NCBI GenBank assembly: GCA_021813125.1
Contig: JAKALT010000003.1
Span: 7,800-71,799 of the forward strand
Direction of reading: 5' to 3'
Origin: a bacterium
GTDB taxonomy: Bacteria; Patescibacteriota; Microgenomatia; Curtissbacterales; GWA2-41-24
DNA: 64,000 nt
The translations under genes and the position numbers were made by a program. Shown here in pieces: positions 25,540 to 62,804 of the stretch. The notes under the pieces were generated by a model. That model searched no databases, was not told the DNA's origin, and saw nothing but the letters and a program-made list of their open reading frames with translations. Positions within the stretch are counted from its first letter, which is position 1, and every line of letters starts with the position of its first letter.

Positions 25540-26469
25540 ATGGCACAAATCTTAGATGGTCGCGCAGTTCGCGATGCAATACTGGAAGATCTTAAAAGCC
25601 AGATCACAAAACTCGAAACCAAACCAAAACTGGTAATCATCCAAGTCGGCGATAACCCCGAAAGTAATACTTACATCGGTCAAAAAATAAAATTCGGCGA
25701 AAAAATCGGTGCAATTGCCGAACTTAAAAAATTTCCTGTAGATATCAGTCAAAAAGATCTAGAATCTATCATCTATCATCTAAACTCTGACCCGACTGTC
25801 CACGGCATCATTATCCAGCTTCCTATTTCCGATCATCTGGACAAAGACGCATTGATAGAACTTATCGACCCCAAAAAAGATGTGGATGGCCTTACGTCTG
25901 CCAACCAAAAACTTTTGGAAGAAAATAGCCCCGATGCTTTAGTTCCGGCAACAGCCAAAGGCGTAATCACAATTTTAGATTTTTATAAAATCCAGATTAA
26001 GGGAAAAAAAGCAGCAGTCGTCGGCCGATCCAAACTTGTGGGCGCACCAGTTGCCAGCCTTTTGAGAAATCTGGGAGCCGAAGTTACCGTCGGCCACAGC
26101 CAAACACCGGATTTAACCGCCGTCACAAAACCTGCAGACATTATTGTAGTAGCCGTCGGCAAACCGAATTTAATCGGCAAAGAGCATGTTTCACCGGGAC
26201 AAACAATAATCGACGTCGGGATAAATGTAGTTGACCAGTTACCAGAGACCAGAGACCAGACAGAAGGTCAGGAATCAGAAAAGGTCAGGCCTTGGAAAAC
26301 TGAAAGGCCTGACCTTAAGAGTACGCGCAAGCTCGTTGGCGACGTAAACTTTGCGGAAGTCGAACCAATTGTCGCCGCAATCACCCCCGTCCCCGGCGGC
26401 GTCGGCCCCATGACCGTTGCATCTTTATTTGAAAACTTCCTCGAAGCCTACAAACAACAAAATGCTTGA
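25540..26469 (+). CDS. folD: bifunctional methylenetetrahydrofolate dehydrogenase / methenyl-THF cyclohydrolase
   Basis: MAQILDGRAVRDAILEDLK...VIIQVGDNPESNTYIGQKIK N-terminus and the PVPGGVGPMTVASL C-terminal motif. It carries an atypical insertion of about 27 aa between GIN and KLVGDV (see findings). Confidence 0.85.
   Translation: MAQILDGRAVRDAILEDLKSQITKLETKPKLVIIQVGDNPESNTYIGQKIKFGEKIGAIAELKKFPVDISQKDLESIIYHLNSDPTVHGIIIQLPISDHLDKDALIELIDPKKDVDGLTSANQKLLEENSPDALVPATAKGVITILDFYKIQIKGKKAAVVGRSKLVGAPVASLLRNLGAEVTVGHSQTPDLTAVTKPADIIVVAVGKPNLIGKEHVSPGQTIIDVGINVVDQLPETRDQTEGQESEKVRPWKTERPDLKSTRKLVGDVNFAEVEPIVAAITPVPGGVGPMTVASLFENFLEAYKQQNA
26233..26260. repeat. CCAG-heptad repeat copy in-frame inside folD
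   Basis: GACCAGTTACCAGAGACCAGAGACCAG encodes DQLPETRDQ. The same 20-mer occurs in dprA. Confidence 0.6.
26281..26317. repeat. palindromic hairpin element copy (in-frame inside folD)
   Basis: AAGGTCAGGCC-TTGGAAAACTGAA-AGGCCTGACCTT, an 11-bp perfect stem. Confidence 0.6.
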
Positions 26470-27055
26470 CGAAAAATTTATAATTCTTGCTGCTACAATA
26501 AATTTTTTTGGAGCCATTGGCTATTTAATAAGTACACTCAAAGGAAAAACGAAACCAAACCGGGTAACTTGGTTGCTTTGGTCAATTGCTCCCATGCTTG
26601 CTTTTAGTGCTCAACTTAAACAACATGTCGGCTTGATATCCTTAACAACATTCATAGCTGGATTTAACCCTATGATGATTTTGCTTGCGTCTTTTATTAA
26701 TAAAAAATCCGAGTGGAAAATCGGCAAACTCGATATTATTTGCGGCACATTATCGCTACTTGGCTTAATTTTGTGGCAAGTTACAAAAATCCCCAATCTT
26801 GCAATAGCTTTTGCAATAATGGCAGACGGTCTTGCGGCAACCCCCAAAATAGTAAAATCATATACAAATCCTGAAACTGAAAATGCAATCGCATATTTTA
26901 CAGCCGGAATCAGTAGCATAATTGCAATCCTGACGATAAAAACTTGGCGCTTCGAAAACTTTGGTTTCCCTTTTTATCTTTTTTCGGTAACTTTTATTTT
27001 GTACGTTTTAATCCAATTCAAATTAGGCAAAAAATTTAAGAAAATCCTCGGCTGA
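26462..27055 (+). CDS. hypothetical polytopic membrane protein
   Basis: About 6 predicted TM helices. The start was chosen at the internal ATG at 26462, which overlaps the folD stop as ATGCTTGA. The ORF track begins at 26417, inside folD. Confidence 0.45.
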   Translation: MLDEKFIILAATINFFGAIGYLISTLKGKTKPNRVTWLLWSIAPMLAFSAQLKQHVGLISLTTFIAGFNPMMILLASFINKKSEWKIGKLDIICGTLSLLGLILWQVTKIPNLAIAFAIMADGLAATPKIVKSYTNPETENAIAYFTAGISSIIAILTIKTWRFENFGFPFYLFSVTFILYVLIQFKLGKKFKKILG

Positions 27056-27184
27056 TATTTATTGTTAAAAACCTCCTCGAAGCCTACGCAAAATAACATT
27101 AGTCTAATAATCTAGATTACTAGACTTCAAGACTAATCTGGTTTCCTTGACCATTAGCCTGTTGCGATTTAATATTAACGGCAA

Positions 27185-28888
27185 ATGTATGCCGATATTG
27201 TTGTCTTAACTTACCAGGCTCCTGACATAGATTACTTTACTTACAAAATCCCCGACAATTTAAAAGTTAAAATCGGGCAACTTGTCGAAGTGCCTTTTGG
27301 CAAAAGAAGCCCCACTGGCATTGTGCTTAGCACAAGCACAGAAGTTCGAAATTCGAAATTAGAAATTCGAAATTTAAAGGAGGTATCAAAAGTTATCTCA
27401 TCAGACCCCATACTCCTCCCTTACCAAGTTGATCTACTCAGATGGATGTCCAATTATTACCTTGCCACGATGGTTAACTGTTTGGAAGTAATGATACCCA
27501 AAATTCCCCCGCAAAAGGCCAGGCCTTTTGCTACAGACATACCTAAGTTAAGGCCTGGCCTTAGCCACGAGCCCCAATCCCTCATCCTCGTCCCCACAAT
27601 AAACCGCATCCCGGAAACTTTGGCCAAATTTCCCAAAGCTAAAAATTACGCCGTTTACCATAACGAACTGAAACCGGCCGGAAAATTCGCAACCTGGATG
27701 AAAATTTTATCCGATGATGCAGATTATGTCTTCGGCTCCCGCTCCGCAATATTTTCTCCATGCCCCAACCTCAAAGAAATAATAATTTACGACGAACACG
27801 ACGGTGCCTACAAAGACGAACGGTCACCGTATTTCGATACCTTAACAGTTGCCCAAAAAATTGCGGCGTTAACCCGAGCCGAGCTAAAAATAGTCGACCC
27901 CTCCCCCAGAATCACCACGTATTTTGCGCTTAAAAGCCGTATTAAAATCCAAAACTTTTCCCAAAAAACAACAGTAATCAACATGCTAAACGAAAGGCAA
28001 AGCCAAAGGCACAGCCCCATAAGTTTCGACTTGGAAGAAGAAATCAAAAATATCCTAGAAAAGGAAGGTCGTGTGTTTCTTTTTTTAAACAAAAAAAAGG
28101 AATCGGGCCATATGTTTTGCAAGGCGTGCAAAAATTCCGAGTTTCTACAAAAACAACCGGAAACTTGCCCGAATTGTAACTCTGCGGACATTTTTTGGAA
28201 TGTACTAAATATCGAATCTCTTGCCGCCGAAGTCAAAAAACTGTTTTCCAAAACGCAAGTCAACTTAATTTTCCAAAAGCAGTCAGCAGTAAGCAGTCAG
28301 CAGTTAACAATAGATATTGGCACCGCCTATTCCCTCTATGCCCCACTTTTAAAAAAGTATGATCTTGTCGCCCACATTCAAACGGATTCGTTAATCAACA
28401 TCGTAGATTTCAATTCCCAGGAAAAACTTTATAGCCAAATCACGACGCTTAAAAAACTTCTAAAACCAACCGGCAAGCTCTTCCTCCAAACCTACAATCC
28501 GCAAAATCCGGCCATTGAATTTGCATCAAATGGAAATTATGGAGCCTTTTTTACAGGCGAGTTATCGCAAAGAAAGCAGCTTTTCTACCCGCCTTTTGGA
28601 ATGCTTTTCAAGCTAACAGTAAAAGGCAAAAACAAACAGAAGATTTTAAAGGAAGCCGAAAATCTCGCGAGTCAACTTCGATCAACGATAAACGATTCAC
28701 GATTGACGATCTTGGGCCCATACGAATCTGTCTTTGTGCAAAAAACACCAAGCTGTCATATAATCTGCAAATACTCTCTCAAAACTTATAATCTGCAGGA
28801 AAGAGAAAAAGCTGTCCAATATTTTAAATCCATAAGCAGTTTGCCGAAAAACTGGCAACTTGTTGTCGAACCTGATTCAATAAACTAA
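27185..28888 (+). CDS. primosomal protein N' (PriA)-like, with degenerate helicase motifs
   Basis: N-terminal 3'-DNA-binding-domain pattern (VEVPFGKRSPTGIVL), helicase motif Ia/II equivalents (LILVPTINRIPE, IIIYDEHDGAYK, GSRSAIF), a Cys4 zinc region (CKACKN...CPNC) and PriA-like C-terminal segments. No GxGKT Walker A and no AGRAGR-type motif VI were found. Confidence 0.55.
   Translation: MYADIVVLTYQAPDIDYFTYKIPDNLKVKIGQLVEVPFGKRSPTGIVLSTSTEVRNSKLEIRNLKEVSKVISSDPILLPYQVDLLRWMSNYYLATMVNCLEVMIPKIPPQKARPFATDIPKLRPGLSHEPQSLILVPTINRIPETLAKFPKAKNYAVYHNELKPAGKFATWMKILSDDADYVFGSRSAIFSPCPNLKEIIIYDEHDGAYKDERSPYFDTLTVAQKIAALTRAELKIVDPSPRITTYFALKSRIKIQNFSQKTTVINMLNERQSQRHSPISFDLEEEIKNILEKEGRVFLFLNKKKESGHMFCKACKNSEFLQKQPETCPNCNSADIFWNVLNIESLAAEVKKLFSKTQVNLIFQKQSAVSSQQLTIDIGTAYSLYAPLLKKYDLVAHIQTDSLINIVDFNSQEKLYSQITTLKKLLKPTGKLFLQTYNPQNPAIEFASNGNYGAFFTGELSQRKQLFYPPFGMLFKLTVKGKNKQKILKEAENLASQLRSTINDSRLTILGPYESVFVQKTPSCHIICKYSLKTYNLQEREKAVQYFKSISSLPKNWQLVVEPDSIN
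27524..27565. repeat. palindromic hairpin element copy (in-frame inside the PriA-like gene)
   Basis: AAAAGGCCAGGCCTTTT...TTAAGGCCTGGCCTTA. Confidence 0.55.
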
Positions 28889-29415
28889 TGGTAAAGCCAA
28901 TCTTAACAATTCCAAAAGACGATCAGGCCTTGCGTCAAAAGTCGCAAGCTGTAACCACCTTCGACAAGTCGGTCGAAAATTTGGTAACCGACCTTACCGA
29001 CACCATCGACGCCCAAACCGACCCGGTCGGCCTTGGCCTTTCCGCACCTCAAATTGGTGTTTTTAAAAGGGTTTTTGTGGCAAGGATCAGAAACAAACTG
29101 AAAAGTTTTGTTAACCCAAAAATTACCAAATTTTCCCAAGCCGAAACCAGTTTTTTGGAAGGATGCTTTTCCGTTCCCGAAATCTACGGTCACGTCATAA
29201 GGCCGGCAGAAATAGATCTTCTGTCGCAGGACATGCACGGCAAAAGTTCTAACATCCACTACAAAGGCGTTCCCGCCAGGATTATTCAGCACGAGCTGGA
29301 CCACCTGGACGGCATTTTGTTTATAGACCATGTCCACACCCAAAACGGCAAAGTTTTCAAAGTAGAAAAAGACAAACGCGGCAAAGAACAGTTTATCGAG
29401 GTCTCACTCCCTTAG
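28888..29415 (+). CDS. def: peptide deformylase
   Basis: Carries the three Def motifs: GLSAPQIG, EGCFSVPE and HELDHLDG. Confidence 0.85.
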   Translation: MVKPILTIPKDDQALRQKSQAVTTFDKSVENLVTDLTDTIDAQTDPVGLGLSAPQIGVFKRVFVARIRNKLKSFVNPKITKFSQAETSFLEGCFSVPEIYGHVIRPAEIDLLSQDMHGKSSNIHYKGVPARIIQHELDHLDGILFIDHVHTQNGKVFKVEKDKRGKEQFIEVSLP

Positions 29416-30935
29416 GAATTTCTCCCAACCATCTTGCCCAAAGCTCTTCCTAACCTTCCTGTTTTAGCACGTTTGTATCTCTGTATGTACTCTGCTTGAA
29501 CATCTTTGATACCAGATCGACGCACGGATTCGGCAATCTGGGCATTAACCGGCTCCAATATTTCTGATTTCTTGTCCCAATTTACCGAATGCAGAGCACC
29601 AACAATCGGCCTACCACCACTCCTCCTTACAAGTCTATCTTGAAGGTAGGCTAAATCACTTTCACTTAAACCAAATAGACCCGGTTTACGCAGGGAAGCT
29701 TCTAGGATTTTTTCATTAATATCATACGACACTTCCTCTCCTCTTAAACTACTTAAAAATTCTTTATAGCCCGGAGATGTTTTAAACAAGTCATTATGTC
29801 GCTCGATCAATTTTGAACTCAAATTAATACCATGCATCCTCTCTTCAATCGCCTCCTCAAGCACTTCTTTTGAAAAACCCATCAAAAGACCAGTTTTCAT
29901 TGCCTGCGCCCTTGCTATTTCCGGACTCCAAGTTACTGTTTCGGTTGGTCTTTCACGAAAAAGGGCCAGCTGGATTGGTGTTATTACAGGATGGAAAAGG
30001 ACCTTGGCAGTTCCAACCTGATCCTCTTTATAAGATAACCTTACTCCGCTGTATGCTTGCATAGGATTTTGGTCCTCCCAAAGTCCTTCTCGAAGTATTT
30101 CCCACTTCAATCCATTTTTAAAATTATCATCATCAGATGCATTTTCATCCCAATCTGTAAATACATCCCTATTTCCTTCAACTATCTTTTTAACTGCCTC
30201 TGGGTTATAAAGGATTAAATTGTCTACCCAACGTCCTTTGTGAACTTGATGTGCATATAACCGTAAATTTATTCCCTGCTCTTCAAAAAATTTCTGCAGA
30301 GCCTCGGGCGAAGCGTGGTTGCTGACAGTGTAAAAATTCTTCAAATCCAAAAACACCATCGGCCTCTCGCCCGATAGCACTTCCAGAATACCTTCTGCTT
30401 CCTGCCCCACTGATAAATGCTTCGCAATTTCCCGCCCGTTCCAAACCTCACGCTGCGAATGCGAACCCACTCCCGCAGGCTCAAACCGCCTCACAAATCT
30501 TCCATTTTCGTCAAAACATGCATCCAATGCCCTGCGGTATGTAGCAAGAGCTTGCTCTCTCTTTTCAGAAACACCCTCCGGTGTTTTTTTTGTGGGAGTA
30601 ATTGTGGTTTCACCTGGAGAACCTGGAGGAACTTCAGGAGAAGATGTGTTAACAGGCGCAGTTTCATCCAGACTCTTTACTTCTGAAAGGGGCTTTCTAA
30701 CTTGCTCAGCGTTATCAGGAGTTGTGAGCTTATCCTTCGCTTGTCTTAACTCGTCCATCGAATCAAAACGCCTATATCCACGTGGGCGCCTGTGGACGAA
30801 TTTTCCGTACAACTCCCGCAACCTGCGTATCCGGCCGTTCGCCGCCGCTTGCTCTGAATTGGATGAAGCTGCACGCTTTGTACTTCCAAGCGAAGCTTCC
30901 GGTCTAGCAGGTTCTCTTGTCTCGAACTTACCCAT
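29412..30935 (-). CDS. hypothetical protein (507 aa)
   Basis: Long ORF with good coding appearance and a basic N-terminus. No family recognised. It interrupts the usual def-fmt adjacency on the opposite strand. Confidence 0.45.
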   Translation of the reverse strand: MGKFETREPARPEASLGSTKRAASSNSEQAAANGRIRRLRELYGKFVHRRPRGYRRFDSMDELRQAKDKLTTPDNAEQVRKPLSEVKSLDETAPVNTSSPEVPPGSPGETTITPTKKTPEGVSEKREQALATYRRALDACFDENGRFVRRFEPAGVGSHSQREVWNGREIAKHLSVGQEAEGILEVLSGERPMVFLDLKNFYTVSNHASPEALQKFFEEQGINLRLYAHQVHKGRWVDNLILYNPEAVKKIVEGNRDVFTDWDENASDDDNFKNGLKWEILREGLWEDQNPMQAYSGVRLSYKEDQVGTAKVLFHPVITPIQLALFRERPTETVTWSPEIARAQAMKTGLLMGFSKEVLEEAIEERMHGINLSSKLIERHNDLFKTSPGYKEFLSSLRGEEVSYDINEKILEASLRKPGLFGLSESDLAYLQDRLVRRSGGRPIVGALHSVNWDKKSEILEPVNAQIAESVRRSGIKDVQAEYIQRYKRAKTGRLGRALGKMVGRNS

Positions 30936-31012
30936 TTAGGCTAATTCAATTGTAAACCTATTCTCTTCCGGATTGAATAATCACTTTGTTACAAGAGTTA
31001 TAATTAAAACTT

Positions 31013-31894
31013 ATGAAACCTATAAAAATCGCATTTTTTGGCACGCCGCAAAACGCAGCTATAGTTCTGGAAAAACTTGTCCAGACAAAGTACAAACCGG
31101 GTCTAATCATCACAACTCCAGATGTCCAACAAGGCCGCGGCCAAAAATTGCAGGAATCACCTGTTAAAACTTTAGCATCAGTTCATGGCATCGATGTTTT
31201 GGAGCCGGAAGATTTGGAAAATCCCGAATTTGTTAAAAGTTTTAAAAATTTTGCCCCTGGCGTTGCAATACTTGTAGCCTACGGAAAAATAATCCCCCAA
31301 GAAGTCTTGAATATTCCCCGCTTAGGGTTTTTAAACATCCACCCTTCACTTCTTCCCAAATACCGCGGCCCATCGCCTATCTACGAAGTAATTTTGGCAG
31401 GTGACAAAAGAACTGGGGTGACTATCATAAAACTTGATCCTGAGCTCGACCATGGCCCGATTCTTGCTCAAAAAGAACTCGAAATAGAAAACGCCGATAC
31501 CCATCAGTCGATAATGGAAAAAACGGCAATTTTGGGTGGCGATTTACTAATAGAAATATTGCCCGGTTACTTGGATAGATCAATAAAACCCAAACCCCAG
31601 AACCATTCCGGGGCCACCTATACCGAAAAAATTGAAAAGCAAAACGGCTTGATTGATTTAAATAGTCCACCGGATCCAAAAACATTAAACCGTATGATCC
31701 GAGCCTACTTCCCCTGGCCTACTGTCTGGGCAGAAATCGAAACACGCGACACGAAAAACGGAATACGAAAATTCAAAATCAAGTTTTTACCGGAAAATAA
31801 AATCCAGCCGGAGGGAAAGCGGCCGATGAGCCTAAAAGAATTTCAAAACGGCTACCCAAATATCTCTCAACAAATTTCAACTTTATTTGACTAA
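31013..31894 (+). CDS. fmt: methionyl-tRNA formyltransferase
   Basis: IAFFGTPQNAAIVLEKL, RGRGQK, NIHPSLLPKYRGPSPI and HGPILAQ align with Fmt. A TATAAT hexamer sits a few nt upstream of the ATG, which may indicate a leaderless transcript. Confidence 0.85.
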   Translation: MKPIKIAFFGTPQNAAIVLEKLVQTKYKPGLIITTPDVQQGRGQKLQESPVKTLASVHGIDVLEPEDLENPEFVKSFKNFAPGVAILVAYGKIIPQEVLNIPRLGFLNIHPSLLPKYRGPSPIYEVILAGDKRTGVTIIKLDPELDHGPILAQKELEIENADTHQSIMEKTAILGGDLLIEILPGYLDRSIKPKPQNHSGATYTEKIEKQNGLIDLNSPPDPKTLNRMIRAYFPWPTVWAEIETRDTKNGIRKFKIKFLPENKIQPEGKRPMSLKEFQNGYPNISQQISTLFD

Positions 31895-31923
31895 AGTTAA
31901 GTCAAAGGATAAAATCCCCCGAA

Positions 31924-32508
31924 ATGGCAGAGAGAAGAAAGCCGGAACCAGTAACCGATTATCTTTTTTTTAAAAAGCTCCGTGAGCTTTATCCCATTAA
32001 GACAGTTTATTATCCAGGTTGTGGTTCAGACAAAAAACTTGAAGACTATTTTGCCAAGGAGGAGATAGTATATCTGGATAATGGATACAGAAGAATGTTC
32101 ATTCTAGACGCCCAACAAGAAATAGAAAGAGGTATAAAAACTGCAGGCAGAGTATCAGCAGATTACGGACGTGCCCCCTTTAAAGATGAAGTTTTTGATG
32201 CCCTTTATTTTAATGATAATCATGCAGATTCCAAAGAATTTGAGGAAATGCTGCGACTCGTTAAACCCGGAGGCCTTGTAATAATAGCTAACACATGTTT
32301 CGGCGGAGTATCTAAGCCTCAAGCTATGAGAACATCAAACCTAAAAAACTTGCGCCTTCCCTTCAGGCATATTGCGGATGCGGCAGATCGCTTAATCGTT
32401 CTTCAAAAGGAAAACGGTGGTGACTGCAAAGTTCCACCAGGACTTTTGGATCTATTAAAAAATATTCCAGGAATCAGTCTTGGTTTTACCAGCGAGCCTA
32501 TTGATTAA
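31924..32508 (+). CDS. putative class I SAM-dependent methyltransferase
   Basis: VYYPGCGSD (motif I-like) and LVKPGGLVII (motif III-like). This is a weak assignment. Confidence 0.35.
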   Translation: MAERRKPEPVTDYLFFKKLRELYPIKTVYYPGCGSDKKLEDYFAKEEIVYLDNGYRRMFILDAQQEIERGIKTAGRVSADYGRAPFKDEVFDALYFNDNHADSKEFEEMLRLVKPGGLVIIANTCFGGVSKPQAMRTSNLKNLRLPFRHIADAADRLIVLQKENGGDCKVPPGLLDLLKNIPGISLGFTSEPID

Positions 32509-32509
32509 A

Positions 32510-33565: not shown

Positions 33566-33800
33566 CCTCAATAACCGCTTTTTTTAACTTGACCAATGTG
33601 CTATTATTAAAGTGTTCACAGGAAGCAAACCCTACTTAGGTTGCACTTTAAAAAAGTTTTAGCCTTTTTCTTCGCCTTCAAGTATTATCTCGGGGATCCG
33701 ATACTTGCATTACCGAGGTATAGCGATGAGGATACCCACCTGGGAAAGTCCGAAGAAAAACTAAACCATGCGCCAATAGTAGGGTCGCCATTATCATAAA

Positions 33801-33823
33801 CCAAGCAATCGCTTGGTTTTTTA
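33801..33823 (+). terminator. Rho-independent terminator-like hairpin plus T-run
   Basis: CCAAGCAATCGCTTGG followed by TTTTTT. Confidence 0.45.
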
Positions 33824-33837: not shown

Positions 33838-33886
33838 AAGGTCAGGCCTTAACCCAGGTTAATCATTTGTAAAGGCCTGACCTTTA
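33838..33886. repeat. palindromic hairpin element copy (intergenic, between convergent genes)
   Basis: AAGGTCAGGCCTTA...TAAAGGCCTGACCTTT. Confidence 0.6.
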
Positions 33887-39047: not shown

Positions 39048-41257
39048 AACTCAACGTTTCGAAAAAAATTCTTGCCACAATCATAATCTCGATATTTCTG
39101 TTTCTTATTAAAACTAATTCTGCCTTAGCAGATAATTATAATTTAATACCAAATCCATCATTTGAATTCGGAACATCAAGCCCACTTGAATGGGAAACAA
39201 ATAATTCCTCTACATGTATTAATAGCCAAAACACACCCCAATCATCTTTTGAATGGTCATCAGAAATCACGCAAAGCGGCTCGCAATCGCTTGCTCTAAA
39301 AAACATCTACTGGGAAGATATCTATAATCCAGATATTCCTGGACTATGGATTACAAGCAACTACATTGAAACTCCCCGTAACCCAAAAGGGTATGAGTTC
39401 AGTACATGGGTATATGCTAGCAAAAATAACCACTCTATCTACCCCCGCCTTACTGTGTGTACCTATGACATAAATAACAAGCTTTCAACTCAAAGTGAAA
39501 TCACTTTAAATGAAATCCCAGAAGCTGAAACTTGGTTTGAACTAAAATCAGTGCTGATACTTTCCGACCCAAAGATTAAAATAATTCTTGGTTCTAGATG
39601 TTCTTATGAGCCTCCGCAGCAAACTGTACCACCATGTACAGGTTCTTTATGGTTTGACAATACAACAGTAAGACCTATTAACTCAATGATTGCACATACC
39701 TTTAACGATATAAATGAAGATAGTAACCTTAATTGGGGTGAAGAAAATTTAACGCAATGGGAAGTTTCATTGTATCAAGATAGCGACTGCACCAATAATC
39801 ACATCAAAACAACTGGCTGGACAAACAAAAACGGCGATATCATTTTCACCGTCTATAGTATCTTCCCTCCAACATCATTTCCACCAGGTAATTACTCAAT
39901 ACAGCAAACATTCAGAATGTTAAAAACAACCCCATATGCACACGTCGTAGATGCCCGAGATGAGGGATGGATTAACACTACACCAACCTGTCAAAACGTA
40001 ACCTTAAACGACGGGGAAACACCAGCAGTCTACTTCGGCAACTATAAAGCCCCTTCTTTCCCCTATCTCAGCCAGCTCGACCCGGCGTGGAAAGATCTAA
40101 CGTACGATCATGCATCCACCTCAAACCCGTTTTTTTGCGGAACAACAATTGGCGGTTGCGGATGCGCCATAACCTCTTCTGCAATGTTGCTTAAATACTA
40201 CGGAGTTACAAAAGCCCCGGACGGTTCAGAAACCAACCCCAACACCCTAAACACATGGCTGAAAAACAACAGCGGCTACGCTTTTGGCGCCCTAAAGTGG
40301 AATTCCATAGCCGCCTATTCCGTCAAAGCCAACGAGGTATTTGGAACCCAAAAAATCCGCTTTGTGGGAACCGGTGCAGCAAATGATTTTACAACTCTGG
40401 ATTCAGACCTATCCAACAGTAAACCCGACATCATCTCCGAACCCGGCCATTTTATCGTCGCAACCAAAAAGGACGGTACAGATTACGGAATCGCCGACCC
40501 TGCTTACAAAACCAGAACAACTCTGGCTTCCTATTCAAATAGTTTCACTGGAATAAGAAGGTACGAAAAAACCAATACCGACCTAAGCGCGATTTACATC
40601 TCAACCCCTACTCCGAACGATTTGTTTATCACCGACTCCCTGGGAAGATCCACCGGCAAAAATCCCGACACCGGTGAAATCTTAACCCAAATCCCCAATT
40701 CACATTATTTCGTTGAGCCCTCGTTTACAGACCAAACAGATCCCAACTCTCAAGTACCAAGCTCGGGTGTAACCACCCTTGTCATCATTAATCCGGGCGA
40801 GGGAACTTTCAACCTTAACTCTAAATTCGGCCCAATCGATATTTCTGCCTACGACACGCTCGGCAATATCCAAGTTAAAAATTTCTCAACTATCGAACCG
40901 GACACATTTGAACTAAATTACTCAGCAGTTACTGGATCCGATTTCAACGTTTATCAAAAAGTTTCTATCGACTTAAAACCTCAAAATTTGAATAAAGGGA
41001 ACGGGGTTTTCCCGCTGGTAATTAAATCCGACGATAACTTCAACGTCCAGGATATCGATTTTCAGTCAATACGACTTACACCTCCCCAAATCTCGCCTAT
41101 TAAGTTTCCGTTGTTAATTTCAAGTGGCAAAGATTCAAAAAAAGACATGCAAATTTTCTTTCTTGCAAGCCAAATTCCGCCAAACGAAAATCTTTGTTTA
41201 ACTGGCCTAACAGTCGATAATATCGCCTTCAAAAGCTGCAGCACTTTTCCCTTGTAA
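39002..41257 (+). CDS. large secreted protein with N-terminal CBM-like beta-sandwich motif and putative peptidase C39-like (papain-like) domain
   Basis: Signal-like ILATIIISIFLFLIKTNSALA and NLIPNPSFEFG...WE, which is reminiscent of CBM4/9-type domains. A CGCAITSSAMLLKYYGV segment resembles the catalytic Cys region of C39-like peptidases (NGCGPTSLAMVLSYYG). An alternative GTG start at 39044 overlaps the upstream stop as GTGA. Confidence 0.45.
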   Translation: MGNQKRHIQADTLSVKLNVSKKILATIIISIFLFLIKTNSALADNYNLIPNPSFEFGTSSPLEWETNNSSTCINSQNTPQSSFEWSSEITQSGSQSLALKNIYWEDIYNPDIPGLWITSNYIETPRNPKGYEFSTWVYASKNNHSIYPRLTVCTYDINNKLSTQSEITLNEIPEAETWFELKSVLILSDPKIKIILGSRCSYEPPQQTVPPCTGSLWFDNTTVRPINSMIAHTFNDINEDSNLNWGEENLTQWEVSLYQDSDCTNNHIKTTGWTNKNGDIIFTVYSIFPPTSFPPGNYSIQQTFRMLKTTPYAHVVDARDEGWINTTPTCQNVTLNDGETPAVYFGNYKAPSFPYLSQLDPAWKDLTYDHASTSNPFFCGTTIGGCGCAITSSAMLLKYYGVTKAPDGSETNPNTLNTWLKNNSGYAFGALKWNSIAAYSVKANEVFGTQKIRFVGTGAANDFTTLDSDLSNSKPDIISEPGHFIVATKKDGTDYGIADPAYKTRTTLASYSNSFTGIRRYEKTNTDLSAIYISTPTPNDLFITDSLGRSTGKNPDTGEILTQIPNSHYFVEPSFTDQTDPNSQVPSSGVTTLVIINPGEGTFNLNSKFGPIDISAYDTLGNIQVKNFSTIEPDTFELNYSAVTGSDFNVYQKVSIDLKPQNLNKGNGVFPLVIKSDDNFNVQDIDFQSIRLTPPQISPIKFPLLISSGKDSKKDMQIFFLASQIPPNENLCLTGLTVDNIAFKSCSTFPL

Positions 41258-41340
41258 AGGGCAGGCCTTTGTACAGCAAAATCATAGGTTAAGGCCTGCC
41301 CTTAGCTAAGGTACATGAAGGTCTAGGAGCCCTGACCTTA
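41256..41340. repeat. palindromic hairpin element copy plus a second short hairpin, downstream of the 751-aa gene
   Basis: AAAGGGCAGGCCTTTG...TTAAGGCCTGCCCTTA, followed by AAGGTCTAGGAGCCCTGACCTT. Confidence 0.6.
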
Positions 41341-41577: not shown

Positions 41578-41629
41578 TAAAGGGCAGGCCTTTGTGCAGC
41601 GAACTCCATTGGTTAAGGCCTGCCCTTAA
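41578..41629. repeat. palindromic hairpin element copy downstream of rpmG
   Basis: AAAGGGCAGGCCTTTG...TTAAGGCCTGCCCTTA. Its loop is similar to that of the copy at 41256. Confidence 0.6.
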
Positions 41630-48077: not shown

Positions 48078-48127
48078 AAAGGGCAGGCCTTAGCTAAGAC
48101 TATTCTATACAAAGGCCTTCCCTTAAC
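48078..48127. repeat. palindromic hairpin element copy (intergenic, imperfect)
   Basis: AAAGGGCAGGCCTTA...AAAGGCCTTCCCTTA. Confidence 0.5.
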
Positions 48128-56063: not shown

Positions 56064-56899
56064 TAGAAGCCGAACCACAGATTAGAAATCAACCTTACTC
56101 AGAAATTGGCCAACGGGCTAGAATAAAGGCTGCCATACTAGAAATACCGTCGGGGACTGTAACGCTCTGTAAACATTTCTTTCGCGGCCAAAAATTACCG
56201 AACAAAGAAGCTCAAACAATATTAACGGAAGCCATCGAGAGATTGGATGGTTCCGCACCAGAAAGCTTAAAACTATCACCAAAAATAACTCACAAACTGG
56301 GACAGGGGTTTGAGTCCACGGGCTTTGTTTTTGACACAAAAGAAGGGAGATGGGTAGTAAAAATAGGTTTGCCTAAAAATTGTGTGTCAGGAGTATATTC
56401 CCCATCAACTAACGAATATGCGTCTACAATGATCTGGAACTATAATGCGCTTAATGATACGTATCAAACAGAGCTACCCTATGTAATACCCAGCCCTTAC
56501 TTTGTTGTACCGCCAGGTGGGCAAAACCTACGTACAACCGTCCAAATTCAACCATACGTTGAACAGGTCACGGACACAAAAAGCTTAACTAGCAGCCAAA
56601 AAGACGATCTCATTTCGGAAAGGTTAGCATTTTACGCATTATCGCGTTCGATGCTAAAACGTAAAAAAGTGATGCCCGATTTGGTAAAACAAAAAAATCT
56701 TATAATAGGCACACGCGGAGGGCAACCCCACTATGTTTTAGTTGATGTTGGCTTGTTTCATTTGCAAGCACCTACACCAACATTAAACTTATTGGTATAC
56801 TTTTCACAAAGATTGTCCTTATCAAGGGATATCAGGATCTTAAAAAAAGCAAATAATTCAATAACATTCAGTCGTAACAAAAAATCTCCAATCGTCTAA
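56060..56899 (+). CDS. hypothetical protein with protein-kinase-like fold signatures
   Basis: VVKIGLPK (a VAIK-like Lys), PDLVKQKNLIIG (catalytic-loop-like D..N) and VLVDVGLF (DFG-like). This is a weak assignment. Confidence 0.3.
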   Translation: MIEAEPQIRNQPYSEIGQRARIKAAILEIPSGTVTLCKHFFRGQKLPNKEAQTILTEAIERLDGSAPESLKLSPKITHKLGQGFESTGFVFDTKEGRWVVKIGLPKNCVSGVYSPSTNEYASTMIWNYNALNDTYQTELPYVIPSPYFVVPPGGQNLRTTVQIQPYVEQVTDTKSLTSSQKDDLISERLAFYALSRSMLKRKKVMPDLVKQKNLIIGTRGGQPHYVLVDVGLFHLQAPTPTLNLLVYFSQRLSLSRDIRILKKANNSITFSRNKKSPIV

Positions 56900-56908
56900 A
56901 ATACATAC

Positions 56909-57823
56909 ATGCCCAGACCTATCTATAGAAAAATTCGCGTTCCGTTAATTCTTGCCTCAATTTTTATAATCGTCTTATATATCTCCAGCAAAAACACCAA
57001 AACCTACATCACCCCTTATTTTTTCGGTGCTAAAAACAACCTCACACAAATATTCAGCGATAAACCTAATAAGCAAATTCAAACTTTCCTTGAAGGAGAA
57101 GTTTCCAAACTGCCGGGAAATTATGGCGTCTATATTAAAGACTTAAAACACCAAACAATTTATTCCGTAAACGAAAACCAGCAGTTCCAAACCGCAAGCA
57201 TCTACAAACTTGCGGTAATGTACAAAGCTTACGACGCCATCTCAAAAGGCGAACTCTCCAAAGATGATGTCCTGACAGAAGACGAGTACACGCTAGACCA
57301 AATACTTAGCCCTGAGGAAAGTAATGTTACAGACTCAACCGTTACCTACAATGTCGCGGACGCCCTAAAAGCCATGATTACCGTCTCCGACAACTATTCT
57401 GCGCTTCTTCTGGCCCACAAACTTGGTTGGCAAAACATAGACGACTTCCTTCATCAACAAAACATTTCCGGTTTCGACCTTGTCTATCAGGAACAGCCAA
57501 AGTCAACGGCAAAGGCTGTCGGTGAAATTTTAGAAAGGATCCACAACAATACGGCTGTCAATTCCCAAAGTTCCGAAGAAATGAAAGCATTACTCCTGGC
57601 TCAGCAAGTCAACGACAAAATCCCCAAATACCTGCCTTCCGACATTAAAATTGCCCACAAAACCGGAGAACTCGACAACATTAGAAACGACGCCGCAATA
57701 ATTTACGGCAAAAACAGCACCTATATTTTTGTTGTTCTTTCAGAAGCCCCCGTACCCGAAGAAGCAACGGATGAAATCGCCCAACTGTCCAAAAAAATGT
57801 ACGACAAGCTGGAAGAAGACTAA
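56909..57823 (+). CDS. class A beta-lactamase-like serine hydrolase
   Basis: N-terminal TM/signal region, then SxxK (ASIYKL), SDN (TVSDNYS) and KTG (HKTGEL) motifs in canonical order. Confidence 0.6.
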   Translation: MPRPIYRKIRVPLILASIFIIVLYISSKNTKTYITPYFFGAKNNLTQIFSDKPNKQIQTFLEGEVSKLPGNYGVYIKDLKHQTIYSVNENQQFQTASIYKLAVMYKAYDAISKGELSKDDVLTEDEYTLDQILSPEESNVTDSTVTYNVADALKAMITVSDNYSALLLAHKLGWQNIDDFLHQQNISGFDLVYQEQPKSTAKAVGEILERIHNNTAVNSQSSEEMKALLLAQQVNDKIPKYLPSDIKIAHKTGELDNIRNDAAIIYGKNSTYIFVVLSEAPVPEEATDEIAQLSKKMYDKLEED

Positions 57824-57875
57824 GGTCGCTTATACCTTGAAATAGCCCCTGTCTTTAGCGTATACTTCCAAAACT

Positions 57876-58301
57876 ATGGCTAAGAAAATAAAGGCAATTG
57901 TCAAATTAAATGTAAAAGGCGGTCAGGCAACCGCTGCCCCGCCTGTAGGCCCGGCTCTTTCACAACATGGCTTACCAATTATGGATTTTGTCAAAAGTTT
58001 TAACGACAGAACCAAAGACCAGCAGGGCACCATTTTGCCTGTAGTCGTCACAATTTACGAAGACCGCACTTTTTCCTTTTTAGTTAAAAAACCGCCAGTT
58101 GCCATTCTTATCAAAAAAGCTCTCAATCTGGAAAAAGCCGCTAAAACTCCGGGTAAGCAAACGGTCGCAAAAATGCAAAAGGCTCAAGCAAAAAAAATAG
58201 CAGAAGAAAAAATGGAAGATTTAAACACAAAAGATATCGAAGCGGCCATTAAAATAGTTGAAGGCACCGCTCGCAGTATGGGTGTGGAGGTCACGGAATA
58301 A
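57876..58301 (+). CDS. rplK: 50S ribosomal protein L11
   Basis: AIVKLNVKGGQATAAPPVGPALSQHGLPIMDFVKSFN is the L11 signature. Confidence 0.9.
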   Translation: MAKKIKAIVKLNVKGGQATAAPPVGPALSQHGLPIMDFVKSFNDRTKDQQGTILPVVVTIYEDRTFSFLVKKPPVAILIKKALNLEKAAKTPGKQTVAKMQKAQAKKIAEEKMEDLNTKDIEAAIKIVEGTARSMGVEVTE

Positions 58302-59233
58302 TGGGAACTACTAGAATTAAAGTAATCGATTTATCATCAAGCCAGCAGGAGATCAAAACCTCCCGGAAGCATGCGGAAAAATTGGCAGGCGTTCCAAAGC
58401 TGGAAAAAGAGGAAAAAGAAAAAAAACAACAGGAAAAACACGCAGAAAGCACCCAACCTCAGGATCAGGCAGTTGACGCAGCAGAAAACCAGGCAGAAGA
58501 AACTGTCACCCAAAACGCCGAGCCGGTAGCCGAAACACCCAAAAAAGCCGCATCGGTCACACCTAAGAAAAAGGCCACAAGCCACCGCGGATCAAATTAC
58601 GAAAAAGCTAAAAAATTGGTTGAGGACAAACTTTACAATGTTCAGGAAGCACTGGACCTTCTTCCAAAAACTTCGTTTACCAAATTCGACCCGACCGTAG
58701 AAATACACTTGGGCGTTTCCGAAAAAAGTGTTAAGGGATCCGTTAATTTTCCTTATTTGGAAGTCAAAAAGCAAGAAAAGAAATATCTGGTTTTTGCAGA
58801 CACCAAACCCCAGTCTGAAGCAAAAAACATCATTTTCGCAACCGAAAAAACAATAGAAGATCTGGAAAGCGGCAAGCTTAAACCTTCACGCGATTTCGAT
58901 GTAGTGGTTGCAAGTCCAAAGTTCATGCCGGCTCTTGCCAAAGTCGCCAAAATTTTAGGCCCACGCGGCTTAATGCCCAACCCTAAAAACGGCACAGTGA
59001 CAGAAAATTTTGATAAATTTGTGGAAGATTCTAAAACCGCAAGCACCCAGTTTAAATCCGATCCATCCTCGCCTGTCGTTCACATAAAAATCGGCAAACT
59101 CTCCCAAAAACCGGACGAACTTTCAAAAAACATGAAGGCTCTGGTTTTGGCAATCGGTTCTTCCAAAATCAAAAAGGCTACAATAACTACCACTATGGGA
59201 CCGGCCATAAAAATCGATCCGGCTACTCTTTAA
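58301..59233 (+). CDS. rplA: 50S ribosomal protein L1 with N-terminal extension of about 95 aa
   Basis: The C-terminal 215 aa align with L1 (GPRGLMPNPKNGTVT). The N-terminal region is Lys/Glu/Gln-rich low complexity. Confidence 0.85.
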   Translation: MGTTRIKVIDLSSSQQEIKTSRKHAEKLAGVPKLEKEEKEKKQQEKHAESTQPQDQAVDAAENQAEETVTQNAEPVAETPKKAASVTPKKKATSHRGSNYEKAKKLVEDKLYNVQEALDLLPKTSFTKFDPTVEIHLGVSEKSVKGSVNFPYLEVKKQEKKYLVFADTKPQSEAKNIIFATEKTIEDLESGKLKPSRDFDVVVASPKFMPALAKVAKILGPRGLMPNPKNGTVTENFDKFVEDSKTASTQFKSDPSSPVVHIKIGKLSQKPDELSKNMKALVLAIGSSKIKKATITTTMGPAIKIDPATL

Positions 59234-59261
59234 ATTCCGCCAAAATCAAGTCCTTGACAGT

Positions 59262-59295
59262 AAGCCTTGCATCTGATAATTTTCCCCTGCTAATT
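59262..59295 (+). promoter_or_regulatory. candidate sigma70-like promoter in the rplA-rplJ spacer
   Basis: TTGACA, then 14-15 nt, then TGATAAT. Confidence 0.3.
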
Positions 59296-59480
59296 CCTAA
59301 TTCTGCCTTGATCATTAGTATTGTGACAAAAACACATTTTCATAAAGAAACGGGGGACGAAACCCCGCACCTTTAATGCTTAATTATTCTAAAAATGCGC
59401 GAATCAAAAATAAAGGTCGAGAACTTCCAGAATTTTGCACTTTGCACTTCGAATTTTAAATTGCAAAGGAGGTGATATAA

Positions 59481-59576
59481 ATGATCGATGAAACACGCAT
59501 TATTGACGACGAAGACGACGACGAAGAAGAATCAAAAGACGAGGACGAAGAATCAGACGAGGACGACGCAGCATAG
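59481..59576 (+). CDS. small ORF encoding a 31-aa highly acidic peptide
   Basis: MIDETRIIDDEDDDEEESKDEDEESDEDDAA, preceded by a consensus Shine-Dalgarno AAGGAGGTG at -8 and followed by a hairpin/T-run. It is not in the ORF track because it is shorter than 60 aa. Confidence 0.3.
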   Translation: MIDETRIIDDEDDDEEESKDEDEESDEDDAA

Positions 59577-59686
59577 TCCGAAAGTTTCTTAAAAGCCTCA
59601 CGAAACTAACTTTCTGGGGCTTTTTTGTTGCAAAGACATTAGTCAAAAATCTACAATTATGATACGGGAAAGGTACACAACATCAT

Positions 59687-60028
59687 ATGCTTCGCTTTAA
59701 TTGGTCTGTCATTGCAATAGCCTCAGGTATGTCATTCGTTATATGGGCTATTTTGTTTAGGGTCTTTTTCGCCGAAGCCGGCTCCAAACTCGTCGGCACA
59801 AGTCAGGGCATGTGGATAGGGCCGCATTTTCTCTACTTCGACAACGCTGCCACCACCACTGCAGCAATAGTGTCAGAATTGCAGTCGGTATTGCTAACAA
59901 GGCAAAAAAGGATTCTAGCACTGGTTCTAACCGGGGCAATCGTCGCAGTCTTAGCCGCGTTGATCTCGATGTACAGCGCAGAGAAGCTGCCTCCTTTTAC
60001 AATACCAGTTATTCCTTCCACATATTGA
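59687..60028 (+). CDS. hypothetical membrane protein
   Basis: 113 aa with about 3 TM helices. It lies between rplA and rplJ. Confidence 0.35.
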   Translation: MLRFNWSVIAIASGMSFVIWAILFRVFFAEAGSKLVGTSQGMWIGPHFLYFDNAATTTAAIVSELQSVLLTRQKRILALVLTGAIVAVLAALISMYSAEKLPPFTIPVIPSTY

Positions 60029-60181
60029 CAATTACCCCAAAAATCTTGTTAAATACCCTCAATCCAAAGACCGTAGGCATATCGGGCAAAATCCGATATT
60101 TAATATTCCTACGCAGGAAAAAGCAAAACGTTTATTCCTCTTTGGCCGCAAGTCGGCCATTTTCTTTGGATATACATTCAA

Positions 60182-60736
60182 ATGAAAAAACACACTAAGT
60201 CGGCTCGCGAGATAAAGGGAGAAAAAATCCAAAACCTGGCCGAAAAATTTAAAAAGGCAAAGACTCTAACGTTTGCCGACTACCGCGGCTTAACGGCAAA
60301 CCAAATCGCAATACTTCGCTCAAAAATTAAAGCCTCGGGTGGCGAAATGCTGGTTGAAAAAAATACACTTATCTCTTTGGCCCTCAAGGATTCCGGCCAC
60401 AAGTTGGAAAAATCCCAAGACCCCAAAGGCACACTTCTCACCGGCCCAACCGCAACTATTTTAGCTTACGAAGACGAAATAGCACCGATAAAAGAAACAG
60501 CCCAAAGCGCAAAAGAGGTTGGTTTACCAAGTTTTAAATTTGGCTTTTTCGGTCTTGAATTCCTAAACTCCCAGGGCCTTGAAAGTTTATCTAAAATCCC
60601 CGGCCGCGAAGCCCTTCAAGCCAAATTAGTCGGGTCTCTTTCCTCACCTATCTACGGCATTGTTGGAGTTTTAGGAGCCAACCTAAGAAACCTTGTATAT
60701 ACTCTCAGTGCGATAAAAGATAGCAAATCCCAATGA
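60182..60736 (+). CDS. rplJ: 50S ribosomal protein L10
   Basis: KTLTFADYRGLTANQIAILRSKIKASGGEMLVEKNTL is the L10 signature. It sits upstream of rplL. Confidence 0.8.
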   Translation: MKKHTKSAREIKGEKIQNLAEKFKKAKTLTFADYRGLTANQIAILRSKIKASGGEMLVEKNTLISLALKDSGHKLEKSQDPKGTLLTGPTATILAYEDEIAPIKETAQSAKEVGLPSFKFGFFGLEFLNSQGLESLSKIPGREALQAKLVGSLSSPIYGIVGVLGANLRNLVYTLSAIKDSKSQ

Positions 60737-60780
60737 ACAATGAACTATTAACTATAAACTTTCTAAAGGAGGTGAATTAA

Positions 60781-61377
60781 ATGGCAGACGACGATCAAAA
60801 ACAACAGGACGCACAAGACAAGGCAGAAGAGGCAGCCGATAAGGCTGAGGAAGCTGCAGACAAAGCTGAAGAAGCAGCAGAAAAAGCAGAAGAGGCAGTT
60901 GAAGAAGTAAAAGAAGAGGTAAAAGAGGTTAAAGTTGAGATAAAGGAAGAAAAGGCCGAAGCAAAGGAAGAGAAAAAAGAATCACCTAAGGTCAGCAAAA
61001 AACTTGAAGGCCTAATCGGGGATATCGAAAAACTTTCCGTTTTGGAACTTTCGGAATTGGTAAAAGCCTTAGAAGCAAAGTTTGGAGTTTCCGCAGCACC
61101 TCAGGTAGTTGCCGGAGGAGCAGCCCCAGCTTCAGCTGCAGGAGACGAGGGAGCAAGCGAACAGACAACTTTTAACGTTGTTTTGGCAGAAGCCGGAGCA
61201 AACAAAATCTCCGTCATCAAAGCAGTTCGTGAGTTGGTTCCAACATTAGGGCTTAAAGAGGCTAAAGACTTGGTAGATACTGCACCTAAACAGGTGTTAG
61301 AAGGCGTCAACAAAGAAACGGCAAACGAAGCTAAAACTAAACTCGAAGCAGCAGGCGCTAAAGTAGAACTCAAATAG
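60781..61377 (+). CDS. rplL: 50S ribosomal protein L7/L12 with N-terminal extension of about 70 aa
   Basis: The C-terminal 125 aa are canonical ([19 protein letters not shown]...KEAKDLVD...AKVELK). The N-terminal roughly 70 aa consist of Ala/Glu/Lys-rich repeats (DKAEEAA x3). Confidence 0.85.
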
Positions 61378-61400
61378 CTTAACAAAGGTCTGGCTCAGAA

Positions 61401-61448
61401 AAAGGGCAGGCCTTTGTTGGGTATTTTCAACGTAAAGACCTGCCCTTA
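61401..61448. repeat. palindromic hairpin element copy downstream of rplL
   Basis: AAAGGGCAGGCCTTTG...AAAGACCTGCCCTTA. It likely also acts as the rplL terminator. Confidence 0.55.
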
Positions 61449-61629
61449 ATCAAAGCACAGTATAGGGCTGACCTTGAGCTATTGACCTGTAATCATAAAA
61501 CCAAGCCATAACCTTCTTTTTGCCCACTTGACCGCCGATTTTTCCCATGATACATTGGAGTCCGAAAGTGATTCTTTTGCTTTCTAGAATGACCATGTTT
61601 AAAAACGCTATATTTCTTCCTAACTCTGA

Positions 61630-61659
61630 CTTATCACTTATCACTTATCACTTATCACT
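61630..61659. promoter_or_regulatory. tandem heptamer direct repeat (CTTATCA)x4 immediately upstream of the HTH gene start
   Basis: CTTATCACTTATCACTTATCACTTATCA ends 4 nt before the ATG at 61663. Confidence 0.4.
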
Positions 61660-61662
61660 ATT

Positions 61663-61875
61663 ATGGCATTAGGAGACGACTGGCCGGATTTGTTAACCGT
61701 TAAAGAAGTAGCAAAAATACTTCGTGTTGCCCCACTCACAGTCAAACGATGGGGCAAACGCGGCAAACTCCCGGCAATCCGCATCAACTCCCGCGGCGAC
61801 CGCAGGTATAAGAAGGAAGCCGTCCTTTGGCTTTTAGGCGCCATAAAATCCGGAAGCACCTCGGTAAACGAATAA
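61663..61875 (+). CDS. excisionase-family helix-turn-helix DNA-binding protein
   Basis: LTVKEVAKILRVAPLTVKRWGKRGKLPAIRINSRGDRRYKKEAV matches the MerR-superfamily/excisionase-type HTH pattern. Confidence 0.55.
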   Translation: MALGDDWPDLLTVKEVAKILRVAPLTVKRWGKRGKLPAIRINSRGDRRYKKEAVLWLLGAIKSGSTSVNE

Positions 61876-62759
61876 AAGGTTTGCTTGCTTTTAAATTACC
61901 CCAAACTTATAATCCAGCTGCCAATATGGCTTTAGCAGAAATACCGCGCTTTTCAGATACACCAAGAGTACCCGAAATAGCCTCGGCACGTCGTTCATTA
62001 ATATACACCTTCGACTGTTGGCTTGGACCAACCGAGAAGGACAAACAAGCGGCAAAAGAAATTATGGAAGAGAGATGCGCTGTAGCCGCTAAAAAATATT
62101 TTTCAGCCGAGTACGAAACGGATTCTCAAAGACCAGCCATTGCTTGTTTCGCTGGCGAACACGAAAACGAGGATCTCCCCGGCTCGCAAAGAATACAAGA
62201 AATCTTAATTGGCCTTGGTGTTCCTGAAGAAAAAATTGTGACAGGTGCCAACACCATAACCACCGTTTACGACCTAGCCGCAATGCATGCATTTTCATCC
62301 GCTTACGGAATCGAAGAAACAACTATCGTTACTAGCAACTTTCACAAGCGTAGAACCCGAAAAGAAGTCGCTAACCATTTTAATAGACCAGGGAGAAAAA
62401 AACATAGACCAACGATTGAAATTCTGACGCCTTCATCAAGGAGCCTAAATCAATTAGCATTTGCACCAGATATGTCAATGAGCTTACAAATCCAAATCGA
62501 GGGGCTTATTCACCGCGGTCAGCAAAGGAAAATTGTGCCTCAAGAAATTGCAGCAACGGCAATTGCCTACATTCCAAACAGAAAGCTCCGAAGATACATT
62601 CAAGATCCAATCGAGAGAAAAACTCACGCTCATACTCCAAGACAACTCGCCAGAATCGAAAACTTAACAGCCCGTATGATACAAGATTGGGAAAAAGTAA
62701 GAGCTCAAGCGCTAGCAGCTAAAAAACCAAAATTTCCCGACATCCCGGCACATGGATAA
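61827..62759 (+). CDS. DUF218 (YdcF/ElyC-like) domain protein
   Basis: IACFAGEHENEDLP..QEILIGLGVPEEKIVTGANTITTVYDLA...IVTSNFHKRRT matches the DUF218 pattern (S.NT.ENA...VTS.FH..R). The true start may be the internal Met at 61926, because the track start overlaps the HTH gene by 49 nt. Confidence 0.5.
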   Translation: MAFRRHKIRKHLGKRIKGLLAFKLPQTYNPAANMALAEIPRFSDTPRVPEIASARRSLIYTFDCWLGPTEKDKQAAKEIMEERCAVAAKKYFSAEYETDSQRPAIACFAGEHENEDLPGSQRIQEILIGLGVPEEKIVTGANTITTVYDLAAMHAFSSAYGIEETTIVTSNFHKRRTRKEVANHFNRPGRKKHRPTIEILTPSSRSLNQLAFAPDMSMSLQIQIEGLIHRGQQRKIVPQEIAATAIAYIPNRKLRRYIQDPIERKTHAHTPRQLARIENLTARMIQDWEKVRAQALAAKKPKFPDIPAHG

Positions 62760-62804
62760 TTTTTATCCCCAAAATTGGCTCATTTGCTAAAAAGGGCAGG
62801 TAAT

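Follow-up and report, generated by a model that had tools for sequence, protein, structure and literature searches.

Palindromic hairpin repeats of probable REP/REPIN type in Patescibacteria, with in-frame copies in folD and a PriA-like gene

A 64,000-nucleotide stretch of a Patescibacteria genome (assembly GCA_021813125.1, contig JAKALT010000003.1, positions 7,800 to 71,799; hereafter the window) carries seven palindromic hairpins, each built from two inverted 13-nt arms around a short spacer. We found that these hairpins are probably REPIN-like doublets, small selfish palindromic repeats of the kind formed by repetitive extragenic palindromic (REP) sequences and REP-associated tyrosine transposases (RAYTs), and that the family is widespread in Patescibacteria. 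The signature is that of a REP/REPIN–RAYT system because single-copy RAYT genes in genomes other than this one are bordered directly on both sides by the 13-mer or by compensated forms of it, and the arm has REP anatomy in that each arm is itself a palindrome. A REPIN consists of two inverted REPs with a variable spacer (10.1101/2021.07.10.451892; PMC3337134), and Bertels and Rainey described such hairpin-forming doublets in Pseudomonas and Enterobacteria (PMC3116915, PMC3337134, PMC5581495). [quoted passage not shown] Work on REPIN–RAYT systems has centred on Proteobacteria, Pseudomonas and Enterobacteria among them, and their occurrence in streamlined CPR genomes of about 1 Mb bears on the question of whether they are parasites or long-term partners of their hosts.

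Hairpins in the window

A search of the window for AGGCCTGCCCTT with at most one mismatch returned 14 half-sites against 0.18 expected, a number that none of 100 shuffles reached. All 14 pair up as seven hairpins with the structure AAGGNCAGGCCTT, a loop of 10–22 nt and AAGGCCTGNCCTT. The stems are 13 bp long; five of the seven are perfect and two have one mismatch each. When folded as RNA, every stem was stable (−23.6 to −30 kcal/mol; z −3.3 to −5.3), and a scan of the window with Rfam at the gathering threshold returned four tRNAs only, with no family matching the hairpins. A first-pass annotation made from the window's sequence had already listed seven palindromic hairpins, all of which were recovered by pattern search and folding. 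Its coordinates agree with ours apart from a slight shift of the second copy, placed at 27524–27565 and really at 27515–27562, and its loop range of 13–30 nt is replaced by the measured one. The half-site that it gave at 62791–62803 (AAAGGGCAGGTAA) has no partner arm and is not counted as a family member. The seven elements are as follows.

26281..26316, plus strand: 36-nt subfamily element, AAGGTCAGGCCTT GGAAAACTGA AAGGCCTGACCTT, in frame in folD; peptide KVRPWKTERPDL, residues 248–259
27515..27562, plus strand: type A element of 48 nt that keeps the frame of the PriA-like gene; encodes KARPFATDIPKLRPGL
33838..33884, minus strand: 47-nt type A element in a convergent spacer, 37 nt past the stop codon of a LytR_C gene; loop oriented on the minus strand
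41257..41303, plus strand: type A element of 47 nt; its first base doubles as the final base of the TAA stop codon of a gene for a 751-residue secreted protein
41580..41627, plus strand: 48-nt type A element, 3 nt past the stop codon of rpmG (L33), with a prepilin-like gene downstream
48079..48124, minus strand: type A element of 46 nt, one mismatch in the stem, between divergent open reading frames (ORFs), an RRM protein gene and a glycosyltransferase-like ORF
61402..61447, plus strand: type A element of 46 nt, one mismatch in the stem, 24 nt past the stop codon of rplL

Arm density in the window is about one per 4.3 kb. All seven elements lie in positions 26000–64000; positions 1–26000 hold none, just a lone one-mismatch arm at 1413, and include a low-GC block with genes of glycosylation or cell-surface type at about 8–20 kb.

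Five of the seven copies are intergenic and two are intragenic. Most copies had been described as lying just after stop codons. This holds for four of the five intergenic ones (0–37 nt past the stops of the secreted-protein, rpmG, rplL and LytR_C genes); the fifth, at 48079–48124, lies in a divergent spacer. Both intragenic copies keep the reading frame, as reported earlier, with 36 nt amounting to 12 codons in folD and 48 nt to 16 codons in the PriA-like gene.

We also considered transcription termination. Intrinsic termination as the primary role was rejected, as a terminator scan flagged no copy and the consensus of the 3′ flank, AACc.AGg, contains no T-run. The organism uses ordinary terminators, because a canonical one stands beside the third copy:

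33798–33819: canonical intrinsic terminator with a 9-bp stem, a 4-nt loop and a T-run, 19 nt upstream of the third copy (33838–33884)

Given this neighbour, and given that the copies have neither a T-tail nor a short loop, the hairpin family is not the organism's ordinary terminator. Termination, as proposed in the first-pass annotation, would be at best a secondary, co-opted role, in view of the missing T-tails, the long loops and the divergent and intragenic copies. The hairpins may have been co-opted as structures at mRNA 3′ ends.

The family and its RAYT genes in other genomes

To describe the family beyond the window we scanned one genome per species with a gapped hairpin pattern. The genome-wide search suggested for this genome was thus run on other genomes, and there the family is abundant, with the element present in at least 94 stretches, nearly all from Patescibacteria metagenome-assembled genomes (MAGs). 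Among the matches listed, the hosts were Gottesman-, Curtiss-, Collier-, Woyke-, Jorgensen- and Paceibacteria, Saccharibacteria and several doubtfully labelled MAGs; 156 distinct elements were extracted from the stretches listed, and one relative, WY3.bin73, carries about 41 elements in 120 kb. The repeats are likely points of contig breakage in MAG assemblies and could serve as lineage markers. We observed that loci from CAYTEJ01, CAZEDQ01 and CAYSOR01 (for example L012 and L071) bear the label 'uncultured Gammaproteobacteria'. The folD and PriA genes of CAZEDQ01 (L012) are 65–76% identical to those of the window, the elements in CAYTEJ01 and CAYSOR01 belong to the same CPR-type families, and the Gammaproteobacteria labels of all three are probably wrong.

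Clustering of the loops separated a 46–48-nt type A, a Gottesmanbacteria type, a 36-nt type (loop GGAAAACTGA) and a 38-nt type. Six of the seven window copies fall in type A, and the folD copy falls in the 36-nt type. Across the family the spacers range from 7 to 40 nt and define the subfamilies, and type A has about eight further conserved bases on each side (c.aggtA ... AACc.AGg). A weak signal suggesting that the loop pairs further with the 3′ flank, or forms a pseudoknot with it, traces to the conserved 8-nt flanks, which contain the palindrome CCTAGG, and not to covariation, and we rejected such pairing. The REP core is the 13-nt near-palindrome AAGGNCWGGCCTT, present as two inverted cores per element; the C variant of the arm, AAGGCC-W-GGCCTT, is a perfect palindrome around its central W, and several genomes have a longer palindrome centred on a single arm. 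Most arms (315 of 372, about 85%) occur in left–right inverted pairs, of which there are 160, and lone arms are rare. As in the window, most copies are intergenic, and the few that lie inside long ORFs have lengths that are multiples of three. With regard to the suggested association with gene 3′ ends, no more than 60 nt separates an ORF end from about half of the intergenic type A copies, and the orientation bias relative to the upstream gene is only 14:7.

RAYTs are HUH/Y1 transposases of the IS200 superfamily. Using RAYT-like proteins as tblastn queries against the element-bearing loci, we found two genes matching the Pfam family Y1_Tnp that are bracketed by elements.

L038, 7415–6888: RAYT gene, with flanking elements at 7464–7501 and 6834–6871
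L079: RAYT locus, with an element at 6343–6389 and an arm-centred palindrome at about 7104–7131

We then surveyed 80 metagenome loci of the clade to which these two enzymes belong. For 70 of them both flanks were available, and 54 of the 70 have a repeat of at least 11 nt, mostly palindromic, common to both sides of the gene. Several of these loci carry the same core or variants of it that differ by one to two bases (AAGGCCAGGCCTT, AAGGCCCGGCCTT, AAGGTCAGACCTT, AAGGCGAGGCCTT). The identical core stands on both sides of a RAYT in the metagenome loci L126, L129 and L139 as well, and compensated variants flank the gene in L110, L131 and L188–L191. Closer relatives of the L038 enzyme adjoin mnmA–alaS, as L038 does, and have doublets of AAGACCWGGTCTT around them, a compensated form of the core. 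Enzyme and core thus co-vary, in line with published REPIN–RAYT systems (PMC5581495). Neither mnmA nor alaS is present in the window, so that synteny gives no pointer to its RAYT. In L079, an arm (AAGGCCTGGCCTT, 6585–6597) also lies in frame inside the RAYT gene itself, where it encodes ...KRPQGLALGE....

Other candidates were set aside. A search of the element-bearing loci with IS200, IS608 and E. coli RAYT seeds gave one weak match, which led to a clade of RAYT-like proteins of about 240 residues (L099–L107) beside thrS–infC–rpmI–rplT in Microgenomates-type loci. This clade shows conserved synteny and very short flanking spacers, one member is annotated as Gottesmanbacteria, and it looks like a domesticated Y1 transposase; it is not supported as the cognate enzyme because arms do not flank the gene. 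Weak tblastn matches in L034 and L092 proved to be a BrnT/BrnA-like pair and an unrelated ORF.

The first-pass annotation had favoured a dispersed REP- or MITE-like family over independent terminators. Our data support that view and narrow it to the REP/REPIN type. As classical MITEs, the elements would descend from a DDE-type insertion sequence, and their 13-nt arms would serve as terminal inverted repeats. Being short, palindromic, multi-copy and mostly intergenic, they do fit a loose description of MITEs as sequences of less than 500 bp with terminal inverted repeats of 4–30 bp (PMC10969869). However, direct repeats of 2–6 nt, searched at any offset, were not meaningfully above permuted controls, which leaves the elements without target-site duplications, and neither the window nor about 730 kb of element-bearing loci yielded a parent insertion sequence with these ends. 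The sole type of transposase adjoining the arms is Y1/RAYT, and the arms are themselves palindromes, as in REPs. We therefore regard a MITE origin as very unlikely.

If the hairpins are REPIN-like doublets, their most probable mode of spread can be sketched by analogy with REP–RAYT and IS200/IS605 systems. A RAYT would recognise the hairpin on single-stranded DNA, cut at its foot, and copy or move the element to new sites without target duplication. Copies would survive where they do least harm, in short spacers just after stop codons, and also in disordered surface loops of proteins when their length is a multiple of three and the frame is free of stops. Placement in a disordered loop is seen for FolD, and the PriA-like copy is also in frame. 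The sequence and pairing of the arms would then be kept by selection or by homogenisation to the REP consensus of the lineage.

In-frame copies and covariation between arms

The identity of folD is supported by Pfam and Protein Data Bank (PDB) matches. The window's FolD protein has an identical copy in the MAG GCA_027346405.1, and its closest named relatives are Curtissbacteria, which places the organism in the Microgenomates group of Patescibacteria. Among 25 FolD orthologues, some carry the KVRPWKTERPDL peptide, one has the element inverted, one has a second element adjoining, and several are without an insert; the same 36-nt hairpin occupies the same FolD loop in at least seven species. Solved FolD structures in the PDB have 3 residues where the window protein has 32. 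In an AlphaFold model (mean pLDDT 88), residues 237–260 form a loop with pLDDT below 50, which places the folD copy in a loop predicted to be disordered. The PriA-like orthologue in L066 contains the 48-nt copy and an extra 36-nt copy, and the orthologue in L012 contains neither. Between the window and L066, the arms of the PriA-like copy are identical at 25 of 26 positions and the loop at 14 of 22. Because some orthologues lack them, the folD and PriA-like copies are true in-frame insertions. Insertion polymorphism, which had been suggested as a check, is thus evident across orthologues, with zero, one or two inserts in FolD and likewise in PriA.

Additional arms accumulate near the folD insertion. 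In L066, three follow one another at positions 1498–1623 inside folD, namely the 36-mer, a right arm without a partner and a type A element of 48 nt, and in L012 an extra left arm is present within 2588–2643, again inside folD. The window has a remnant at the corresponding place:

26264..26276, plus strand: decayed extra left arm AAGGTCAGGAATC, just 5′ of the folD element; an intact AAGGTCAGGCCTT stands at the homologous L012 position

New copies thus seem to land beside old ones. A different in-frame insert lies in another FolD loop (columns 138–175 of alignment A1; P0010, P0014, P0028 and P0033), with the peptide ...PVIPAEAGIQSGEDPILNQ..., and looks like a translated copy of another palindromic repeat family. 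The PriA-like gene (27185–28888) encodes just 567 residues, in which Pfam marks PriA_3primeBD and a faint PriA_C; the precomputed Pfam results list no helicase-domain match, and the element lies about where the helicase core would begin. The hairpin repeats account for odd conserved peptides in CPR proteins, including KVRPWKTERPDL and KARPF...LRPGL.

The folD copy is identical at all 36 positions, loop included, in the window, L012 and L066, which represent three species and whose folD genes are about 76% identical overall and 55–58% identical at third codon positions. In other folD orthologues the arms differ by compensatory pairs only: L192 has a T:A to C:G change, L193 has two G:C to A:T changes, and L194 has one G:C to A:T change with the whole element inverted. 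With every such change, residues flanking the loop on either side are replaced. When the 36-nt subfamily was aligned, 5 of 13 pairs had changed on both sides, and none of 500 shuffles reached the observed score. Across the family, position N was complementary between the arms in 148 of 151 elements, compared with 55 expected under independent variation. Because of this covariation we conclude, from the sequence comparison, that base pairing is maintained. Its cause could be selection or homogenisation of the copies to the REP consensus of the lineage, and both fit the data. The in-frame copies are a natural experiment, indicating that a constraint at the nucleic-acid level can override the choice of amino acids in an essential enzyme. 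We tentatively raise the possibility, which we think less probable than not, that REP hairpins in Patescibacteria have been domesticated as base-paired DNA or RNA structures and long preserved by selection, even inside folD. If this is true, some of the smallest bacterial genomes would have in REPIN–RAYT a functional partner passed on by vertical descent.

The same data bear on three readings in which the repeats are not primarily mobile. The hairpins could serve the host in the first place: they might stabilise mRNA 3′ ends, terminate transcription in an unconventional way, mark sites of processing by RNase III or otherwise, or act as structured DNA sites, and selection would account for their repetition, however they first spread. 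The stability of the hairpins, the positions of four window copies and about half of the type A copies elsewhere close behind genes, the compensatory changes in the stems and the full conservation of the 36-mer are all consistent with this. However, a T-tail or short loop is lacking and a canonical terminator stands beside the third copy, the orientation bias is slight, one window copy lies in a divergent spacer, the two intragenic copies cannot terminate transcription, and the same core flanks RAYT genes. We consider a primary host function unlikely.

Alternatively, the arms could be operators or nucleoid-protein sites for a dimeric DNA-binding protein, and the repeats a regulon or an architectural set. 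Each arm is indeed a 13-bp dyad-symmetric site, and arms are conserved while spacers drift, but the sites lie mostly after or inside genes and not at promoters, and compensatory change between the hairpin arms would be needless for binding to double-stranded DNA. This makes an operator highly improbable.

Finally, the 13-mer could be what the competence and type IV pilus machinery recognises as a DNA uptake signal, arranged as inverted pairs at gene ends as in Neisseria and Haemophilus. Pilin-like and competence genes are present in the window, and known uptake sequences are often paired downstream of genes. They are invariant 9–12-mers, mostly singletons, at about one per kb, and also occur within genes. 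In our family, by contrast, about 85% of the arms have a partner and few stand alone, position N is free to vary, with covariation between the two arms, arms show compensatory substitutions between species, the density is about one arm per 4 kb, and the core flanks RAYT genes. Neisseria DNA uptake sequences and Pasteurellaceae uptake signal sequences thus resemble the repeats in being short conserved motifs, often in inverted pairs just past genes, and differ in being largely invariant singletons where here pairs dominate and the sequence covaries. The first-pass annotation had offered an uptake signal as an alternative; the paired arms, the covarying position and the scarcity of lone arms leave it unsupported, and we give it almost no credence.

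Comparison with known repeat systems, and other features of the window

The likeness to REPIN–RAYT systems extends to several properties: a palindromic core (about 14 bp in known systems and 13 nt here) present as two inverted copies with a variable spacer, tens to hundreds of mostly extragenic copies, the absence of target duplication, a single-copy syntenic RAYT flanked by the same core (seen in genomes other than that of the window) and co-variation of core and RAYT between lineages (AAGGCCWGGCCTT, AAGACCWGGTCTT, AAGGTCWGACCTT). Unlike described systems, the family has Patescibacteria hosts with genomes of about 1 Mb, and some of its copies lie in frame inside essential genes. Several observations weigh against the REPIN assignment. 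The elements, at 36–48 nt, are shorter than described REPINs (about 70–110 nt) and their spacers are unpaired. Two of the seven window copies are intragenic, whereas an extragenic position is a hallmark of REPs, and the strict conservation of the 36-mer, loop included, hints at a host-level function beyond selfish spread. We found no RAYT in the 64-kb window or in the searched loci of WY3.bin73, CAYTEJ01 and CAZEDQ01, and the RAYT-like clade of about 240 residues has no flanking arms or repeats. Because none was seen in the window, the RAYT link for this genome is one that we infer, as is the cognate enzyme itself.

The repeats also share features with E. coli REPs and bacterial interspersed mosaic elements (BIMEs) and with the ends of IS200/IS605 elements, namely hairpins, insertion without duplication, clustering beside existing copies and, by analogy, HUH/Y1 recognition on single-stranded DNA; the multi-arm clusters in folD of L066 and L012 resemble BIME-like arrays. 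They differ in their flanks: a conserved 5′ tetranucleotide of the GTAG kind was not identified, and the conserved sequence is instead c.aggtA ... AACc.AGg.

The in-frame copies had been likened to Rickettsia palindromic elements, for which no RAYT is known. The resemblance is apt for their behaviour, since those elements are also palindromic and lie in frame in unrelated housekeeping genes, adding a peptide at a tolerated place (PMC10969869). It does not extend to membership, as Rickettsia palindromic elements are about 100–150 bp long (PMC10969869) and Rickettsia-specific whereas the present elements are 36–48 nt long in a CPR host; the two are set apart here by description, not by sequence comparison.

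Besides the seven hairpins, the window contains three minor arm-like or hairpin features.

1413..1425, plus strand: lone arm with one mismatch, AAGGCCAGGCTTT
7986..8018, no strand assigned: small divergent hairpin, AAGGACAGTCCTT, spacer of 7 nt, AAGGGCTGTCCTT, which shares the AAGG...CCTT frame of the main family
22396..22408, plus strand: lone arm-like site AAGGCCAGGCCGA within a Wzy_C gene

The site at 22396..22408 may be a decayed singleton or a chance match. Nearby, the gene at 22620–22982 has a strong match to 23S_rRNA_IVP and a match under the family's cut-off to bAvd-like, a family that includes accessory proteins of diversity-generating retroelements; its neighbours are the Wzy_C and SHMT genes, with no reverse transcriptase adjoining. 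The hairpin at 7986..8018 belongs to the first copy of an intergenic repeat of about 70 nt (TTGTAAAT...AAGGACAGYCCTT...CTAAAA...TTAATTAATTTGTGAAT), which occurs twice in the window, at 7965–8045 and 17985–18060. Both copies lie between tandem minus-strand genes in a low-GC (35–37%) part of the window.

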